Source of the DNA: a virus | Taxonomy: Duplodnaviria; Heunggongvirae; Uroviricota; Caudoviricetes | Virus record (IMG/VR): IMGVR_UViG_2778260992_000001 | DNA length: 64,000 nt | Direction: 5' to 3' (one strand) | Part shown: piece by piece, positions 15,949-28,624 of the stretch | Position numbering within the stretch: the stretch's first letter is position 1 | How the letters are laid out: every line of letters starts with the position of its first letter | Made by a program: the position numbers and the translations under genes | Notes under the pieces: model-generated | What the model saw: the letters and a program-made list of their open reading frames with translations, nothing else | Databases searched by the model: none | Told to the model about the DNA's origin: nothing

Positions 15949-17049
15949 TCACACTGCGCGGAATGCGATTTCGCCAGGTATTACTTCACCTTGCCAATAC
16001 ATTTGGGCAGCAACGCGATCTGCGAGGTCACGATAAATAGCCGTAAATTCGCTATCTGGACGACTAATAACGGTTGGTGTTCCGTTATCCAGATCTTCAC
16101 GAAGAGAGATATGAAGTGGCATTTGGCCTAACAACTGCGTGTTGTATTTCTCGGCCAGTTTCTGTGCGCCACCGGTGCCAAAAATTGGCTCGTGATGACC
16201 GCAGTTACTGCAAATATGCACACTCATGTTTTCAACGATACCCAGTACCGGCACTTCGACTTTTTCGAACATCACAATGCCTTTCTTCGCATCGATCAGC
16301 GCGATGTCTTGCGGCGTAGTTACCACAACCGCACCAGTTACAGGAATGTTCTGCGCCAGCGTCAACTGAATATCACCAGTGCCCGGCGGCATATCGAGAA
16401 CGAGATAGTCCAGATCAGGCCACAGTGTTTCCTGCAACATCTGCATCAGCGCCTTGCTGGCCATCGGTCCACGCCACACCATTGCATTGTCGTCGGTGAC
16501 CAGATAACCAATAGAGTTGGTTGCCAGGCCATGAGACATGATAGGTGCCATGTGAGTACCGTCAGGTGAGGTTGGACGTTGGTTTTCCGAGCCCAGCATG
16601 GTTGGAATTGATGGACCATAGATATCGGCATCCAAAATACCAACTTTCGCACCTTCAGCAGCCAACGCCAGTGCCAGGTTTACCGCCGTGGAGGATTTAC
16701 CCACGCCGCCCTTGCCTGAGCTGACGGCGATAATGTTCTTCACGCCATTAATGCCTGGTTGGTTTTTGACGCGCTTAAGCGTGGCAATGTTGTACGACAG
16801 CTTCCAGTCAATAGCCTTTGCGCCAGTGATACGGAGCAGATCACCACTACATTGCTCTTTCAGGTCTTCAAAAGGCTTATTCCACACGAAAGGCATGATT
16901 AGTTCGACATGCAGTGTGTCATCCATCAACGCAACATGGTGTAACGCTTTAAGCGTAGTCAGGTTGTGTTTCAGGGTTGGGTGCTGAAAATTAGCCAGCG
17001 TACCGGCTACCATTGCTCTCAGGGCATCCGGCGATTTGGACTCGCTCAT
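15949..17049 (-). CDS. apbC: iron-sulfur cluster carrier ATPase ApbC/Mrp
   Basis: 366-aa translation with Mrp/NBP35 P-loop SSGKGGVGKS and CxxC (CSNCGHH); recognised as enterobacterial Mrp from recall. Confidence 0.9.
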   Translation of the reverse strand: MSESKSPDALRAMVAGTLANFQHPTLKHNLTTLKALHHVALMDDTLHVELIMPFVWNKPFEDLKEQCSGDLLRITGAKAIDWKLSYNIATLKRVKNQPGINGVKNIIAVSSGKGGVGKSSTAVNLALALAAEGAKVGILDADIYGPSIPTMLGSENQRPTSPDGTHMAPIMSHGLATNSIGYLVTDDNAMVWRGPMASKALMQMLQETLWPDLDYLVLDMPPGTGDIQLTLAQNIPVTGAVVVTTPQDIALIDAKKGIVMFEKVEVPVLGIVENMSVHICSNCGHHEPIFGTGGAQKLAEKYNTQLLGQMPLHISLREDLDNGTPTVISRPDSEFTAIYRDLADRVAAQMYWQGEVIPGEIAFRAV

Positions 17050-17206
17050 CCCGTCTCCTTTATTTTAATTTGCGCAATTGTCGCCTTGTAGTGTACTCCA
17101 GCTACGACATTTAATCATTTATGAGAAATGCTGTTATCACATGGCAGACATAAGGCCATTTTGTTACTATCAAGCCCCTTTTCACTACAAAGAAGTAATG
17201 CCTACT

Positions 17207-19240
17207 ATGACCCAAGTCGCGAAGAAAATTCTGGTGACGTGCGCGCTGCCGTACGCTAACGGCTCAATCCACCTCGGCCATATGCTGGAGCACATCCAGG
17301 CTGATGTCTGGGTTCGTTACCAGCGAATGCGCGGCCACGAGGTTAATTTCATCTGTGCCGACGATGCCCACGGTACGCCGATCATGCTGAAAGCACAGCA
17401 GCTTGGTATCACACCGGAACAGATGATTGGCGAAATGAGTCAGGAACACCAGACTGATTTTGCAGGCTTTAACATCAGCTATGACAACTATCACTCGACG
17501 CACAGCGAAGAGAACCGTCAGTTGTCCGAGCTTATCTATACTCGCCTGAAAGAGAACGGTTTTATTAAAAACCGCACCATCTCTCAGCTGTACGATCCGG
17601 AAAAAGGCATGTTCCTGCCGGACCGTTTTGTGAAAGGCACCTGCCCGAAATGTAAAGCACCGGATCAATACGGCGATAACTGTGAAGTCTGCGGCGCTAC
17701 TTACAGCCCGACTGAACTGATCGAGCCGAAATCGGTAGTTTCTGGTGCTACGCCGGTAATGCGTGATTCCGAACACTTCTTCTTTGATCTGCCTTCTTTC
17801 AGCGAAATGTTGCAGGCATGGACCCGCAGCGGTGCGTTGCAGGAGCAGGTGGCAAACAAAATGCAGGAGTGGTTTGAATCTGGCCTGCAACAGTGGGATA
17901 TCTCCCGCGATGCGCCGTACTTCGGTTTTGAAATTCCGAACGCACCGGGCAAATATTTCTACGTCTGGCTGGACGCGCCGATTGGCTACATGGGTTCCTT
18001 CAAGAATCTGTGCGACAAACGCGGCGACACTACCAGCTTCGACGAATACTGGAAGAAAGACTCCACCGCCGAGCTGTACCACTTCATCGGTAAAGATATC
18101 GTTTACTTCCACAGCCTGTTCTGGCCTGCCATGCTGGAAGGCAGCAATTTCCGCAAGCCGACCAACCTGTTTGTTCATGGCTATGTGACGGTGAACGGTG
18201 CGAAGATGTCCAAGTCTCGCGGCACCTTTATTAAAGCCAGCACCTGGCTGAATCATTTTGACGCTGACAGCCTGCGTTACTACTACACTGCGAAACTCTC
18301 TTCGCGCATTGATGATATCGATCTCAACCTGGAGGATTTCGTTCAGCGCGTGAATGCCGATATCGTGAACAAAGTGGTTAACCTGGCCTCCCGTAATGCA
18401 GGCTTTATCAACAAGCGTTTTGACGGCGTGCTGGCAAGCGAACTGGCTGACCCGCAACTGTACAAAACCTTTACTGATGCTGCTGAAGTGATTGGTGAAG
18501 CATGGGAAAGCCGCGAATTTGGTAAAGCGATTCGTGAAATCATGGCGCTGGCTGATCTGGCTAACCGCTATGTCGATGAACAGGCTCCGTGGGTGGTGGC
18601 GAAGCAGGAAGGGCGCGATGCCGATCTGCAGGCGATTTGCTCTATGGGCATTAACCTGTTCCGCGTGCTGATGACGTACCTGAAACCGGTACTGCCGAAA
18701 CTGACTGAACGTGCAGAAGCATTCCTGAATACAGAACTGACCTGGGATGGTATCCAGCAACCGCTGCTGGGCCATAAAGTGAATCCGTTCAAGGCACTGT
18801 ATAACCGCATCGACATGAAGCAGGTTGAAGCACTGGTGGAAGCATCCAAAGAGGAAGTAAAAGCCGCTGCCGCGCCAGTAACTGGCCCACTGGCAGATGA
18901 TCCGATTCAGGAAACCATCACCTTTGACGACTTCGCCAAAGTTGACCTGCGCGTGGCTCTGATTGAAAACGCGGAGTTTGTCGAAGGTTCTGACAAACTG
19001 CTTCGCCTGACGCTGGATCTCGGTGGCGAAAAACGTAATGTCTTCTCCGGCATTCGTTCCGCTTATCCAGATCCACAGGCACTGATTGGTCGTCACACCA
19101 TTATGGTGGCCAACCTGGCTCCGCGTAAAATGCGCTTCGGTATCTCCGAAGGCATGGTGATGGCTGCTGGCCCCGGCGGGAAAGATATCTTCCTGTTAAG
19201 CCCGGATGCTGGTGCTAAACCAGGCCACCAGGTTAAGTAA
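17207..19240 (+). CDS. metG: methionyl-tRNA synthetase
   Basis: translation from [29 protein letters not shown] (HIGH) through KMSKS and C-terminal tRNA-binding domain; appears near-identical to E. coli MetG as recalled; divergent from apbC as in the host chromosome. Confidence 0.95.
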
Positions 19241-20075: not shown

Positions 20076-20645
20076 ATGGATGTGATGGAAACCCAGAACC
20101 AACAAACAAAACCTCTGAATAACATTTATGCGTGGATTCTAGCGTTCATGCCTTTCTTCTTTGGAGTATTGCCGGAAGAGTATACCAATTACGCTATTAT
20201 AATTGGGGGTGTAACTACCATCGGTTTGTTAGTAGCTGACAGAATGGCTCTATCGGAGTCTGGCTGTGAACCACCTTCAATTCTATGGGGGGTATTCCTC
20301 CTGCCTGTCTATCTCTGGAAGCGCGCGACTATTACAAAAGGCAGCAGAGTGCCATTTATCATAATCGTTGCGTCGCTGGCTTGGATTATCTTCATCGGCA
20401 TCCCACACAAGGACGAGGTTGCTCTTGAAGAAGCAGCCTGCCCTCTCGTGACAACTATTCTGAAAGAGAATAACGGTTCGACTGCACCAAAATGTATGAA
20501 GGTGACAATAGAGGACAAGGTGACGGATAAGTTCTATAGAGCAACGGCTACACTAGACAATGGTAATGACATTAACATTACTCTGGAACTTACCGGTGAC
20601 AGGAACTTCTACGTCCGTGTTCCAAATGTTTATCTGAACAACTAA
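20076..20645 (+). CDS. hypothetical integral membrane protein
   Basis: 189 aa with 3-4 hydrophobic helices. Confidence 0.5.
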   Translation: MDVMETQNQQTKPLNNIYAWILAFMPFFFGVLPEEYTNYAIIIGGVTTIGLLVADRMALSESGCEPPSILWGVFLLPVYLWKRATITKGSRVPFIIIVASLAWIIFIGIPHKDEVALEEAACPLVTTILKENNGSTAPKCMKVTIEDKVTDKFYRATATLDNGNDINITLELTGDRNFYVRVPNVYLNN

Positions 20646-20759
20646 CGGTTGCAACTTATTGATAATGGCGGTCACAATTTGATTCTTTTCTATAAGAATC
20701 CGTTGATCGCCACTACTCCCCTTCCATACCTGCAATCATACCCTTAAATATCAATAGGT

Positions 20760-22170
20760 TATGGTTGTTTATACAAATAAGAAAACAACTAAATAACAGA
20801 TCAACGAAACGTCAACGCTTTCACCCGATTTGGTCTAAAAAATTGACGTTTTCACACATCACTTCTTATACCCGTAACTCTACGCAGCAGACAGCGCCAC
20901 AGCGTCCAATTTTCACCACAGACGACCCAACACACTACCAACAAAAACACACGCTCAAAATCGCTCCCGTTGCGTTACGCAACCATATAAACAACTTATT
21001 TTCAGGCATAACAAAACAACTAAATAACACACATGCCATTCCCAAAAACAACCAACCTCTTTATGGCAGGCTACCGAAAAGACCCACCTCTTCTCCCCAG
21101 GCTACCGGACAACCAACCTAACTTTCACAGGCAATCCGAAAACATTCATACGCGCGATACCCACGACACGCCATTACCCAAACAGCGAAGAAATACCAGA
21201 CTCACTGAAACCCCAACGAAGCCTGTTACCGCAAGGATTCTCTCAATCCCAAAAGACACGAAACAGAACAATCACGGGAAACGCCATTACCCAATACACG
21301 AATAACTACAAAAGCCTTTCAGGCACTCCAGACAAACAACTCAAACACAATAACGAAAGCAATCGCCCACCTGCCATTACTCCATACACGGAGAAGAACA
21401 ATCACCAAAACGACGAGAACACCCCATAGAAGAACCACCGCAAAACGAACGAAACCACATACACCGACAGAGAAAACAACACACCCAATTCACCAACAGA
21501 AATAGTCGCCGTATAGGACATTCTGGAAGGAGTGAGCATTAACGCCTATAGAGAGGTTGAGACAGATAAAACACAACATGTATAGCGAAGAAGCCAGGTA
21601 TGTATAAGTGGGGATGGAAGGAGGGGTGTCGCCTCCTTTTTCGTATTTATTCAACTCCTGATTTTATCCCCCGTAACACCCCTACGGTCAGCCTTCGGTC
21701 CATACAGGGGAAAGGCTGCATCCCGCTACAGAAACGGCTGGGTTGCCTTTGGGAACGGCTGGAGGTTTTCAGGGAAACGGTCGAGTTGCCTGTGTGGATT
21801 TCGGGAAAAGGCTCGATGCCGGTTCAGGAACGGTGGCGTACCGGTATAGCGAGAGGGAGAGTTGCGGCTACCCACCTGTAATGTGCGGGAAGAAGAGAGG
21901 CGCTCACGTAGGCGGACTTGCTTACCGCTGGATTCCCTCTGAATGCCCAGCTACAGCGTAATTGTGCCAGACAGCCAACGGGTCACAATCGATTTCAGTA
22001 GGTTTTTGGGGAGAGGATTACTCTGCCACCAGCCACTTTCGGCCACTAAATCAGAATAATGTAAAAAGTGTACTCGGTACTGAACCTGAAAACTCACTGC
22101 CAAAACCACATTCACCGGAACAAAATCCTTTTTCGCCTGTGCGTTATTGCGATAATAACACCATCAAGAA
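20760..22170. repeat. ORF-poor region: A+C-skewed tract with ~19-bp repeats followed by GGRAACGGC-type iterons
   Basis: top strand nearly G-free 20800-21560; repeats gccattacccaaacagcgaag / gccattacccaatacacgaat / gccattactccatacacggag; then gggaaaggctg, gaaacggctg, ggaacggctg, gggaaacggtcg, gggaaaaggctcg. Confidence 0.45.
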
Positions 22171-22185
22171 AACATGTTGTTTAAG
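22166..22185. promoter_or_regulatory. palindromic operator-like site, class 1 (variant spacing)
   Basis: aagaaaacatgttgtttaag. Confidence 0.45.
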
Positions 22186-22524: not shown

Positions 22525-22650
22525 CCCCAACCAAAGCCAGCATTGCTGGCTTAATTTCTCTATAGCCGCAGGGAAGAACCTGCATATAGCTCATGCACCT
22601 GATCAATATGCTTTGTAGCCGTTTTCTTACTGGTATTATTTACGCCATTG

Positions 22651-22667
22651 AGAAAACAAGTTGTTTA
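22651..22667. promoter_or_regulatory. palindromic operator-like site, class 1
   Basis: agaaaacaagttgttta. Confidence 0.5.
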
Positions 22668-22677
22668 CGGAGTTGTG

Positions 22678-22989
22678 ATGAAAAAATCATTGGTTCTTGG
22701 TCTGGACAAAGACCAGAAGAGAAAAGAGAAGCCTGCGCTGGTTGCTCAATTAACTTTGCTGGACATCGTTGCCAATGGAACCTCTATTCGTCTGTTCCGT
22801 GAAACAGCGGTGTCTTTCGATAAAAACACCTTTACTCGTTATGTAATGAATGTTCGTCGCCAGCGTGGAAAAGGCTGGGTGGCATTTCAAAGAATGTGGC
22901 CGGAACATCAGCTCGAACTGGCTTTGATGGAAGTTAACCGCGTGGCCCAGCAAGAGATTCAGAGAGCATCAGTGATGGCAATAGCCTGA
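22678..22989 (+). CDS. hypothetical protein
   Basis: ATG 22678 with RBS acggag; 103 aa. Confidence 0.45.
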   Translation: MKKSLVLGLDKDQKRKEKPALVAQLTLLDIVANGTSIRLFRETAVSFDKNTFTRYVMNVRRQRGKGWVAFQRMWPEHQLELALMEVNRVAQQEIQRASVMAIA

Positions 22990-24824: not shown

Positions 24825-25307
24825 ATGAATTTTATCGCTACTGTAAACGCACCCGCACATGGCAATATCGCTGTAACGTTCTCTGACATTGAAAAACGAG
24901 TACTTGGTGCATGGCGCGACAATGAGACGGTAGAACTGTCAGCACAAGAAAAATGCATTATTGCACGCGACATCATTGGCAATCGTCGTTACTCGCGGGT
25001 ATTTGAAAAAGCGTATGTGGTAAATTCTGGATTCGGAACGTTCGTCTTTCCGGTGCGCTCCGGGCGATTCTGCCAGTCCAAGCTGATTGAGTTCGCTACG
25101 CAGATTTCTGTCTGGATTAAAACTCAATCGTCGTTCAAATTTTCCGACGATGAAGCAGTATCGCAGGGGATGCGGATCGCCAACAATGCAATTAAATGCA
25201 AAAACATTACGTATACCGCTGGCGTTGATACATGGAAACTGTTTTGCGCTAACTTTATGCTGAATGTATACGCAAGCAACCGCATCCACATCCTTGATGG
25301 CGTGTAA
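24825..25307 (+). CDS. hypothetical protein
   Basis: 160-aa ORF, RBS aaggaat. Confidence 0.5.
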   Translation: MNFIATVNAPAHGNIAVTFSDIEKRVLGAWRDNETVELSAQEKCIIARDIIGNRRYSRVFEKAYVVNSGFGTFVFPVRSGRFCQSKLIEFATQISVWIKTQSSFKFSDDEAVSQGMRIANNAIKCKNITYTAGVDTWKLFCANFMLNVYASNRIHILDGV

Positions 25308-25923
25308 CTGAGAAGAGGGCCAGAAACGGCCCTTTCTCTATAGCCACCAGCTGCCGCAGGGAAATTTTCAGAAACGGCGAGGAACGTATTCATGAGCCGA
25401 CGGGAAACGGCCAGGATTTTTTCGGGAAACGGCTGCATTCGCCTTTATGTAGAAAAAACATCGGGAAGCTGGTGGAATCCAACCAGCGGTTGTCGGACAG
25501 GTGAGCGGGGAAAATTATGATGACTTTCGTCACCTGAGACATCCAGATTTCTTTCGTAGCATAATCACATACGTGATTAAGTGGTGTGATTATGTGAAAA
25601 ATCACGCGCACATAATACGCGAGCGGATACAGAACAAAACAAAATGCCGATCCGCACCGACAAATAAACGCGGATCACATAGCAAGACTAAAAGCCAATG
25701 ATTAACCATACTCTATAGCGCAATATAACGCGTTTTAAGCGCGTTAATGTGTTAAGTAATGGGTATGTACTGGCAAGGATATAAAAGCGCGTCTATGGCG
25801 TTATTTTGGTGCTTATTTTTATGTTGTTGGAGTGAGTTAAAGACAATAAAAAACGCGCCATTGATGGCGCGTTATTGTGGAAGTATTGGAAACGAAAAAA
25901 GCGCCCATAGTGGGCGCTCGATT

Positions 25924-27672: not shown

Positions 27673-28197
27673 TCAAAAAGGCAAAATTCGTTCAACCCAA
27701 TCGAACAAAACAACTATTTTTCTACCGTTCTCGACACGTAGTGTAACCTGACAAGCATCTGCGCCTGCTGACACCCCCTCAATTTCACGGCCATCCGCCA
27801 TGTACACCCTTATAGATTTGTTTGCTTTGTAGGCTTGGTTGCAAATTGCAAAAAAATCGCGGCGTGATGGCCGATTATCGACATAATCAGGGTGAACTGT
27901 TAGTCGACCTTTGAAATCGTGAGCGATACTGTCAACCACACCTGATTCAATTGTACTAATGCGTTCAAGTGGGAGCCTTATACGATTTTCTTTGTCAAAA
28001 GGGGCTGGGCAAAGGTCAACTTTGTTACGAGATGGCATGAGGCCATAAACGTACATGCAAAACGCCTGGCCATCTTCGAGAGTGACCCTTACAGGAATTT
28101 GTTCTCTGCGCCAGAACATCAGTAGTTTTTCAACGTTAGTGTAATCTCGCGGCCAGAGTTCAGCTTGGATACCGTAGGTAATATCTTTGGTTGTCAT
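27673..28197 (-). CDS. hypothetical protein
   Basis: start placed at internal Met (MTTKDITYG) so as not to overlap upstream lipoprotein gene; 174 aa. Confidence 0.4.
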   Translation of the reverse strand: MTTKDITYGIQAELWPRDYTNVEKLLMFWRREQIPVRVTLEDGQAFCMYVYGLMPSRNKVDLCPAPFDKENRIRLPLERISTIESGVVDSIAHDFKGRLTVHPDYVDNRPSRRDFFAICNQAYKANKSIRVYMADGREIEGVSAGADACQVTLRVENGRKIVVLFDWVERILPF

Positions 28198-28201
28198 GTC
28201 A

Positions 28202-28624
28202 TCACAGAGTTGTTGGCAGAATGTCGATGTCACCAGAATTGCTGGTGAACACCCTGAACGCTTTTGTGTCTCCATTCTTCAGAGTCGTTTCTCGCTCTTG
28301 ACGAGCGGGGTTTAGAGCACATAAACCTGCACCTTCAAGAGATGCACCCACAATTAATTCTCCGGCATTTAAATGAAAAGTCGCTTTTTCGCCTGTAGCC
28401 AGTTTTGCGACAGTTTCGCCATTGATGAAAATGGAAGCATCACATCCAGCTCCTACAAAACCTGTGTCTCTCATTACCACCAACGTAGCTGGCGCTGCGC
28501 TTTGATACTTGAACACTTTGGCCTGCGGTGCTGGTTTGGCGTCATGGATTGATATTGGACGTGATTGGCACGCGGTAAGCATCAACACTGGTAACGTTAG
28601 TAGAGGGAGAAGCGAGTATTTCAT
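28202..28624 (-). CDS. putative lipoprotein
   Basis: MKYSLLPLLTLPVLMLTAC: signal peptide with lipobox L-T-A-C. Confidence 0.55.
   Translation of the reverse strand: MKYSLLPLLTLPVLMLTACQSRPISIHDAKPAPQAKVFKYQSAAPATLVVMRDTGFVGAGCDASIFINGETVAKLATGEKATFHLNAGELIVGASLEGAGLCALNPARQERETTLKNGDTKAFRVFTSNSGDIDILPTTL

Follow-up and report, generated by a model that had tools for sequence, protein, structure and literature searches.

A conserved non-coding module with a strand-biased A+C tract and phased repeat arrays in SSU5/pHCM2-type phage-plasmids

Positions 20650-22170 of a 64-kb stretch of Caudoviricetes DNA (IMG/VR record IMGVR_UViG_2778260992_000001; the whole 64,000-nucleotide stretch is hereafter the window) hold a strongly conserved feature of ~1.5 kb that is neither the RepA plasmid origin of its element nor a gene. 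The window is identified by sequence as part of an SSU5/pHCM2-type phage-plasmid, because the region matches plasmids and phages of that type. Our best explanation, to which we assign a probability of roughly 35%, combines two elements, a regulated C/A-rich RNA unit, neither translated nor structured, with the character of a Rho-loading site, and behind it iteron-like arrays for protein binding on both sides of a conserved gene cassette. The module resembles known kinds of element, namely rut-like RNA and iteron arrays, and belongs to no defined family. SSU5/pHCM2-type phage-plasmids are common in clinical Enterobacteriaceae and bear resistance genes. The module is among their best-conserved non-coding DNA and is unannotated in most records; no earlier description of it was found in the literature searched.

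A conserved module without coding potential

Of 5426 complete E. coli genomes, 243 match region 20650-22170 at 91-99% identity, always on plasmids of ~110 kb and not on a chromosome. Matches extend to 839 plasmid records from Klebsiella, Escherichia, Enterobacter, Salmonella, Citrobacter and Cronobacter, to the phages Cyrano, CMS-2020a and PhiR41_1 (also 91-99%), and, at 68-72% identity, to SSU5 and Klebsiella phage-plasmids. The region is flanked on the + strand by a membrane-protein gene ending at 20645 and by small early genes beginning at 22174/22197, and comprises a left half dominated by a compositionally biased tract and a right half with a repeat array that recurs downstream. Its principal parts are as follows.

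20764-21533, + strand: A+C-rich, G- and T-poor tract, a candidate unstructured non-coding RNA or Rho-loading region (C/G windows, composition, folding)
21035-21401, + strand: four dispersed repeats starting at 21035, 21170, 21283 and 21373, consensus GCCATTACYCMATACACGGAGAAGAAC (repeat search, alignment)
21046-21137, + strand: three tandem 31-nt units (ACCNACCTCTT...CAGGCTACCG), kept in all lineages
21616-21645, + strand: hairpin, intrinsic-terminator-like in the E. coli type, with a stem and TTTTT (terminator scanner, folding)
21707-21836, + strand: array 1, six co-oriented repeats with a GGGAAACGGC core and 22-bp phasing, iteron-like (repeat search, alignment)
25322-25433, + strand: array 2, three to four more copies of the array 1 repeat, including two perfect copies 22 bp apart

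Probing public collections with invariant stretches gathered 43 full-length copies of the module, representing 23 lineages below 97% identity and reaching down to ~60%. The order of parts is the same in the more distant relatives L090, L102, L103 and L115. Length varies little, from 1461 to 1519 nt, with ~1730 nt in the SSU5 branch. Conservation is blocky, peaking at 20760-20880 and at the fourth dispersed repeat with its 3' flank, which is the best-conserved part of the tract.

All three + frames carry long open reading frames (ORFs), because stop codons are rare in this composition. No ORF is conserved in the region: frames begin and end at shifting places even in closely related copies, and the lengths of indels are not divisible by three. 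A protein-coding region was rejected on these grounds, which bears out the earlier note, made from the letters of the window, in calling the ORFs low-complexity artefacts. The NCBI pipeline PGAP annotates nothing in the gap. Some phage records place hypothetical proteins here, and these, with the open + frames, are what a decayed or low-complexity gene would have in its favour; the annotated ORFs disagree between records in position and strand. Neutral filler DNA would hardly keep its length, composition and many sequence blocks down to 60% identity. Both gene and filler are therefore very improbable.

SSU5-type sequence of enterobacterial origin also occurs in two records of other phyla, L065 (JAEWTL010000044.1, a 'Bacillota bacterium' metagenome-assembled genome) and L066 (a 604-nt contig of the actinomycete Catenulispora yoronensis), where it most likely reflects contamination or mis-binning.

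Strand composition and predicted Rho-type properties of the left half

The extreme A+C skew that the earlier note had described holds up, at ~9.6 standard deviations: the most skewed 600-nt window (start 20901) has an A+C fraction of 0.738, against 0.497 ± 0.025 elsewhere in the 64 kb. Its description of the top strand as almost G-free was too strong, as G stands at ~12-13% and the tract is G-poor. In 100-nt bins from 20900 to 21500, A+C amounts to 71-83%, G to 9-16% and T to 5-19%. There is no genome-wide GC-skew switch at the region, the skew following gene orientation. The ~19-bp repeat family noted within the tract is real, with four copies of the GCCATTAC(C/T)C type that are 66-79% alike over 29 nt and lie not in tandem, with spacings of 135, 113 and 90.

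Composition (A 36-40%, C 31-34%, G 12-18%, T 14-15%) is uniform across eight deep lineages, between which 35-40% of sites are different. A-C exchanges form the largest substitution class in the tract between deeply diverged lineages, accounting for 28-33% of changes versus 9-16% in the right half. This strand-specific composition argues for a role as RNA or single-stranded DNA, because a function in double-stranded DNA would not impose it.

Such an RNA would be largely unfolded. The single-sequence minimum free energy of the + strand is -123 kcal/mol for 762 nt (z = -1.2), the complement is no more structured than its shuffles, and RNAalifold consensus energies are ~0 along the whole tract. 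A globally structured RNA on either strand was rejected on these grounds (z-scores from -1.2 to +1.7). The conserved structures are three small hairpins only, comprising a dyad at 20810-20853, one hairpin near 20967 and one at 21616-21642. Folding of 13 lineages showed the last in every one, although its arms differ, and it is scored as a + strand terminator in the E. coli type and the Klebsiella copy, not in SSU5. Conserved secondary structure with covariation was not found, apart from a single compensatory event in one candidate long-range helix. Of the two roles proposed by the earlier note, a non-coding RNA locus fits better than a plasmid origin, given the strand-specific composition, the lack of structure, the 3' hairpin and the 5' operator modules described below; the locus would presumably be transcribed.

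Rho prefers unstructured RNA that is free of ribosomes, rich in C and poor in G, and the published definition of a rut site uses 78-nt windows with C/G > 1 and a top score above 2. Every 78-nt window across 770 nt of the module has C/G of at least 1.5, with 430 nt at 2 or more, whereas the next longest tract at C/G of at least 1.5 on either strand spans 282 nt. By the rule of RhoTermPredict, 178 consecutive windows pass C/G of at least 2 with spaced C residues. The tract is also unstructured and untranslated as rut sites are, with a consensus fold energy of ~0 and no conserved ORF. Sites for other single-strand binders, namely MazF (ACA), GcvB-type CA, Hfq (ARN)n and AANAANAA, are not enriched over dinucleotide shuffles. 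Rho loading would thus be the most probable biochemical property of the tract, as far as its sequence can tell, because the rut threshold is exceeded and the other motifs are not enriched.

Several further candidates were rejected. In the array unit, GAAA-GG rather than GGA is invariant, and GGA is not enriched, which speaks against a CsrA sponge. T7/T4-type primase sites (GAC, top strand) are depleted rather than enriched, and the two matches to integration host factor sites fall in a part that is not conserved beyond the E. coli lineage. The region contains no tRNA or tmRNA. Rfam 15 covariance models gave no match in the window at gathering thresholds and only chance-level matches in the region at E <= 10.

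The module shares with rut regions an untranslated, unstructured, C-rich and G-poor sequence that reaches the top score of the 78-nt C/G criterion along its full length, and the hairpin after the tract could serve as a pause site. It differs in being about ten times longer, A-rich and U-poor, in carrying conserved repeats and operator-like modules, and in being followed by an intrinsic-terminator-like hairpin; its use by Rho is a prediction. A simple terminator does not account for these repeats, nor for the length, A-richness and separate terminator hairpin; a multivalent RNA standing alone accounts for them better.

A trans-acting sponge or decoy RNA of this kind, whose multiple short motifs would titrate an RNA-binding protein or a small RNA while the 5' hairpin, the closing helix and the 3' terminator hairpin protected it, is accordingly an alternative to be weighed, although we consider it unlikely. 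Its architecture would be that of CsrB, RsmZ and CrcZ, with which the module has in common many short repeated motifs, an otherwise variable and largely single-stranded RNA and a terminal hairpin. Repeated motifs with variable spacers (four of the GCCATTAC type, three 31-nt units, two of the AGAAGAAC type and two 22-nt leader-like copies), the conserved lack of structure and the structured ends favour such a sponge, as do copies within the tract of AAGAAAACAA, a motif that early genes carry downstream of the -10 box and ahead of the start codon. That early-gene motif is palindromic, however, which indicates a DNA operator rather than an RNA site. The module differs further from CsrB/RsmZ and CrcZ in having neither GGA-in-loop motifs nor AANAANAA enrichment nor, even permissively, an Rfam match, and in being about twice as long; the protein-binding motifs tested do not exceed shuffles, and Rho would tend to cut an untranslated C-rich RNA short.

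The target of a sponge could be Rho, Hfq, a host small RNA or the FljA-family regulator of the element itself. The FljA family represses fliC translation post-transcriptionally, acting on a 5' untranslated region. An FljA-family protein is a core gene product throughout the collection's 12 SSU5-type phages, some of which belong to non-flagellate Klebsiella. Its retention in phages of Klebsiella, which has no flagellin to repress, suggests a phage-internal target or role, possibly at the RNA level. ACCCAATAC occurs both in the repeats and in the verified fliC leader; this similarity is at chance level (p about 0.25), so mimicry of the leader for the FljA-like protein was rejected. In the window, the gene in question (27673-28272, - strand) is annotated as a 'transcriptional repressor' and encodes the FljA-family protein (PF03614, E = 2e-84), with a weak Hfq/Sm-like signal at its C terminus.

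A compound version, which we hold to be quite doubtful, would make the tract a ~0.8-kb unstructured C/A-rich RNA with structured ends that acts as a decoy either for Rho, giving protein-free genome-wide anti-termination, or for the element's own FljA-family repressor, forming a CsrA/CsrB-like pair, and would add a separate lytic origin with an initiator of no known family. Were the tract a Rho-loading or decoy RNA, a mobile element would here be managing host termination in an unusual manner, by RNA alone.

Phased repeat arrays, the origin question and the proposed mechanism

The GGRAACGGC-type direct repeats reported by the earlier note are confirmed as six copies, all on the + strand, at 21708-21834. 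The spacings of array 1 (RGRAAMGGY) are 22, 21, 22, 31 and 22 here and 22, 22, 22, 31 and 22 in SSU5. The window contains 14 matches to GGRAAMGGY, ten of them in two clusters. Array 2, located 3.5 kb downstream of array 1, is kept in Cyrano, SSU5 and a Klebsiella relative, and the phasing and single orientation of the arrays are conserved in all lineages. We read the arrays as putative protein-binding DNA sites, because RNA structure in the right half is not in excess (z = +1.4 and +0.9) and the cores are better conserved than the spacers. Array 1 has the repeat layout of an iteron origin (at least three direct repeats of 17-22 bp with ~21-23 bp phasing), and in sequence terms the array architecture is that of iterons.

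The two arrays bracket a conserved gene cassette, which in the distant relative L102 consists of only two genes, homologues of 22648-22989 and 24825-25307. The two cassette proteins are a 103-aa and a 160-aa protein. Structure prediction gave confident or fair models of them (pLDDT 88 and 79); no structural neighbour was found for one, and the matches of the other are marginal, beta-sheet DNA-binding domains being among them. Neither was retained as an initiator, as there are no Pfam or PDB sequence matches and the predicted folds have no Rep-like match. The first unit of array 2 lies inside a strong hairpin at 25310-25345 (GAGAAGAGGGCC-AGAAAC-GGCCCTTTCTC, without a T-run), directly after the stop codon of gene 24825-25307.

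The earlier note had suggested a plasmid-type origin that fits the parA at the window end, a proposal that fails against the plasmid replicon of the element. On the 110-kb reference plasmid NZ_CP023851.1, the RepB-family gene repA (1092-2306) is flanked by ~18 TATGCTGTCAGCGG iterons with 21-bp phasing, and this replicon, at 1.1-2.9 kb, lies ~35 kb around the circle from the region and outside the window. Neither repA nor the TATGCTGTCAGCGG iteron occurs in the 64-kb window, and the array motif of the window is absent from the repA region. The search for a Rep initiator elsewhere in the element, which the earlier note had suggested, thus turned up an initiator gene whose iterons, unrelated in sequence, do not match the array. 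The ParA-type ATPase gene does stand at the window end (63526-63999), 42 kb from the region. No DnaA box was found in the region (zero TTWTNCACA matches), and its sole AT-rich stretch, 20744-20805, a possible unwinding element, is not conserved in SSU5 or Klebsiella. Although the GGRAACGGC repeats are phased like iterons, a vegetative origin of plasmid type served by the RepA and ParA of the element is extremely improbable.

A second, lytic-phase origin deserves closer consideration. Both GGGAAACGGC arrays would then be iterons for an unrecognised phage initiator, like the P4 ori and crr or the lambda O-binding sites, and transcription through the A+C tract under repressor control may activate or prime the origin, as at ori-lambda, P1 oriL and the T4 R-loop origins. 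The six plus three to four co-oriented repeats, phased at 22 bp in all lineages, point this way, as do the operator-bearing modules upstream and the constant bracketing of two genes by arrays, which recalls iterons-rep-iterons replicons. Iteron origins in general (ori-lambda, Rep_3, P1 incC/incA, P4 ori and crr) share with the module co-oriented ~22-bp phasing, conserved cores and variable spacers, and a second array kilobases away is also found with P4 ori/crr or P1 incA.

Scanning viral contigs for the phased pair GGAAACGG-N14-GGAAACGG revealed the GGAAACGG core and its phasing in unrelated viral contigs as well. In L132, L074, L075, L077 and L084, the arrays are laid out as lambda-type origin iterons followed by an AT-rich stretch and three ACAGATC repeats, with a DnaA box in three of these five loci (L074, L077 and L132). 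The array of L132 was checked and lies inside a lambda-O-like initiator gene (phrog_9773, E = 3e-79); that of L141 adjoins a Rep_3 initiator with DnaA boxes. The O-type origins of these unrelated prophages thus have an identical GGAAACGGC core with 22-bp phasing. In their own right, L132 (4369-5358, - strand) and likewise L074, L075, L077 and L084 contain textbook ori-lambda-type origins with four to five iterons TGGAAACGGCACAAACGCCGAA; the DnaA box of L074, L077 and L132 is TGTGGATAA, and the ACAGATC repeats are Dam-site repeats.

The SSU5-type arrays differ from iteron origins in lying outside any ORF and in lacking a cognate initiator, DnaA boxes and an AT- or GATC-rich unwinding region. 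Whereas lambda-O iterons sit in an O-like gene and are followed by an AT-rich region, these arrays are intergenic and the element has neither an O-like nor a Rep_3 homologue. The full 22-bp O-type iteron, AATGGAAACGGC-N6-GCCGAAT, is likewise missing, since SSU5-type units keep GGGAAACGGC only, a 10-bp core without the GCCGAAT half; given the size of the scanned collection, the common 8-mer could be a coincidence.

Two further arguments concern the A+C tract and the replication genes. T4 UvsW and RNase H act on origin R-loops, and a T4-like replication and recombination set including both proteins is encoded by the element, which favours a lytic origin. R-loops are favoured by a GC skew opposite to that of a C >> G transcript, and the + transcript would have precisely this unfavourable skew; an origin in double-stranded DNA would also leave 0.7 kb of strand-specific composition unexplained. 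On balance we judge a lytic origin at the arrays improbable, while noting that it would place the switch from plasmid to phage replication and point to an unknown initiator. In the reference plasmid NZ_CP023851.1 (L007/L008), the T4-like set stands alongside the plasmid RepA and comprises a DnaB-type helicase, primase, gp32-like single-stranded DNA-binding protein, UvsY-like mediator, RecA, UvsW and RNase H; DnaE and ligase are further replication genes of the element, and four tRNA genes are present.

For the preferred reading, an untranslated Rho-loading RNA followed by protein-binding arrays, the sequences establish the anatomy of the module, its conservation, its want of coding potential and of RNA structure, and that the RepA origin is a different one; that the tract is transcribed, that Rho takes part and that the arrays are bound as DNA are inferences. 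The left half (~20764-21645) would be transcribed rightward, as are the flanking early genes, from weak early-type promoters with a dispersed operator, yielding an untranslated RNA of ~0.65-0.85 kb that would end at the conserved hairpin. Selection on strand composition (A ~38%, C ~33%, G and U ~13-17% each) would keep this RNA single-stranded, and an unstructured, untranslated, C-rich and G-poor RNA of such length would be an ideal substrate for Rho loading. In cis, Rho-loading RNA would stop early transcription ahead of the repeat array and the downstream cassette; in trans, if plentiful, it might tie up Rho or some other binder of single-stranded RNA, and a specific partner would bind at the conserved internal repeats. 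In the right half and array 2, the co-oriented GGGAAACGGC sites with 22-bp phasing would be bound by a protein at the DNA level. They could serve replication, as a second origin for the lytic phase or as a control site, which is the least supported step.

Several observations weigh against this mechanism. The C/G property is weaker in SSU5 and Klebsiella, where it is split into blocks of 200-240 nt, and Hfq ARN, AANAANAA, ACA, CA-rich GcvB-type and GGA motifs are not above composition-matched shuffles, so far as a specific partner is concerned. A plain Rho terminator could do without 0.7 kb of sequence, without conserved repeats and without an intrinsic terminator, and Rho leaves the A-richness and U-poverty unexplained. 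The promoter scanner calls no canonical sigma-70 promoter on the + strand of any lineage, although it also misses the genuine early promoters, whose type is the extended -10, and the -10 elements of the E. coli lineage are degenerate in both operator modules. For the arrays, no binding protein was found: the predicted structures of the cassette proteins show no convincing DNA-binding fold, phmmer searches of all ORFs found no O-like or Rep_3 relative in the element, and neither a DnaA box nor a conserved unwinding element lies nearby.

Operator modules, boundary blocks and neighbouring genes

The ends of the left half and the right boundary of the region carry the following conserved features.

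20665-20712, + strand: left boundary block, an inverted repeat GGCGGTCA...TGATCGCC around GATTCTT/AAGAATC plus an invariant TTTCTATAAGA (alignment)
20764-20798, + strand: partial early promoter/operator-like module, GTTGTTTAT...ATAAGAAAACAACTAAATAACA (conserved block; -10 degenerate)
20810-20853, no strand assigned: inverted repeat AAACGTCAA / TTGACGTTT, a small conserved hairpin or dyad site (invariant in the alignment)
20843-20877, + strand: bipartite block TTGACGTTTT-N12-CTTATAC, promoter-like without the -7 T (halves invariant, spacer variable)
20868-20874 and 21602-21608, + strand: CTTATAC / GTATAAG, candidate long-range closing helix (paired change across copies)
20965-21003, + strand: internal early-type promoter/operator module with an operator palindrome at 20987-21003 (matches GAAAACAANTTGTTT with one mismatch)
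21008-21029, + strand: second copy of the 22-nt repeat ATAA(G/C)AAAACAACTAAATAACA (95% identical to 20777-20798; core conserved)
22144-22185, + strand: right boundary, extended -10 promoter (TGcGATAAT) and operator of the downstream gene (20-nt invariant block, early promoter/operator family)

The early genes share a promoter/operator design in which a GATAAT -10 element (often TGcGATAAT) is followed after ~9 nt by AAGAAAACAA-N-TTGTTT. A 12-mer of this family occurs nine times against 0.63 expected, and the operator palindrome GAAAACAA-N-TTGTTTTC is found at 13 or more sites, including 22151-22185 and a site upstream of parA. Members of the family (5687, 6416, 10963, 19325, 19374, 22151-22185, 22652, 23555, 24305, 24790, 33905/33930 and 63476) sit 30-50 nt upstream of many small early genes and parA. 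TATAAG, considered as a second promoter class, is not enriched.

Within the module, 20764-20798 has ATAAGAAAACAA in common with this family, and in the SSU5 and Klebsiella lineages the palindrome of the operator at 20987-21003 is perfect and a -10-like TATATT or TTTAAT stands 7 nt upstream of it. The bipartite block TTGACGTTTT-N12-CTTATAC resembles a -35/-10 pair and is not called by the sigma-70 scanner. The arrangement is comparable to the control of the P1 plasmid prophage by one repressor at dispersed operators, in that one operator recurs at no fewer than 13 early promoters, that of parA among them, with variant copies at the 5' end of the region. It differs in that the SSU5-type operator is palindromic and the copies in the region are partial or stand beside degenerate -10 elements.

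The left boundary block is invariant in 33 of 34 distinct sequences, its left arm being absent in lineage L005. A hairpin at this block was rejected as an RNA element, being invariant without covariation and missing in one lineage. At the 5' end, the local consensus-fold signal is strongest at the 20810-20853 dyad, and this holds for both strands. The candidate closing helix pairs as C:G in 32 sequences and as U:A in 11 of Klebsiella type (CTTATAT/ATATAAG), with no exceptions; this compensatory change is probably one evolutionary event, and the helix itself is only suggestive.

Just upstream of the region, 15949-19240 contains a host-like apbC/mrp gene (- strand) and a full-length methionyl-tRNA synthetase gene, metG (+ strand), both annotated likewise in Cyrano, PhiR41_1 and the reference plasmid. 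NZ_CP023851.1 additionally bears dfrA51, and its nrdA contains an IS3 insertion. Other dyad sites (TAATCACATACGTGATTA and GTGATTATGTGAAAAATCAC) at 25540-25610, in the large intergenic stretch just behind array 2 and before a set of leftward small genes, may mark a second regulatory or immunity region.

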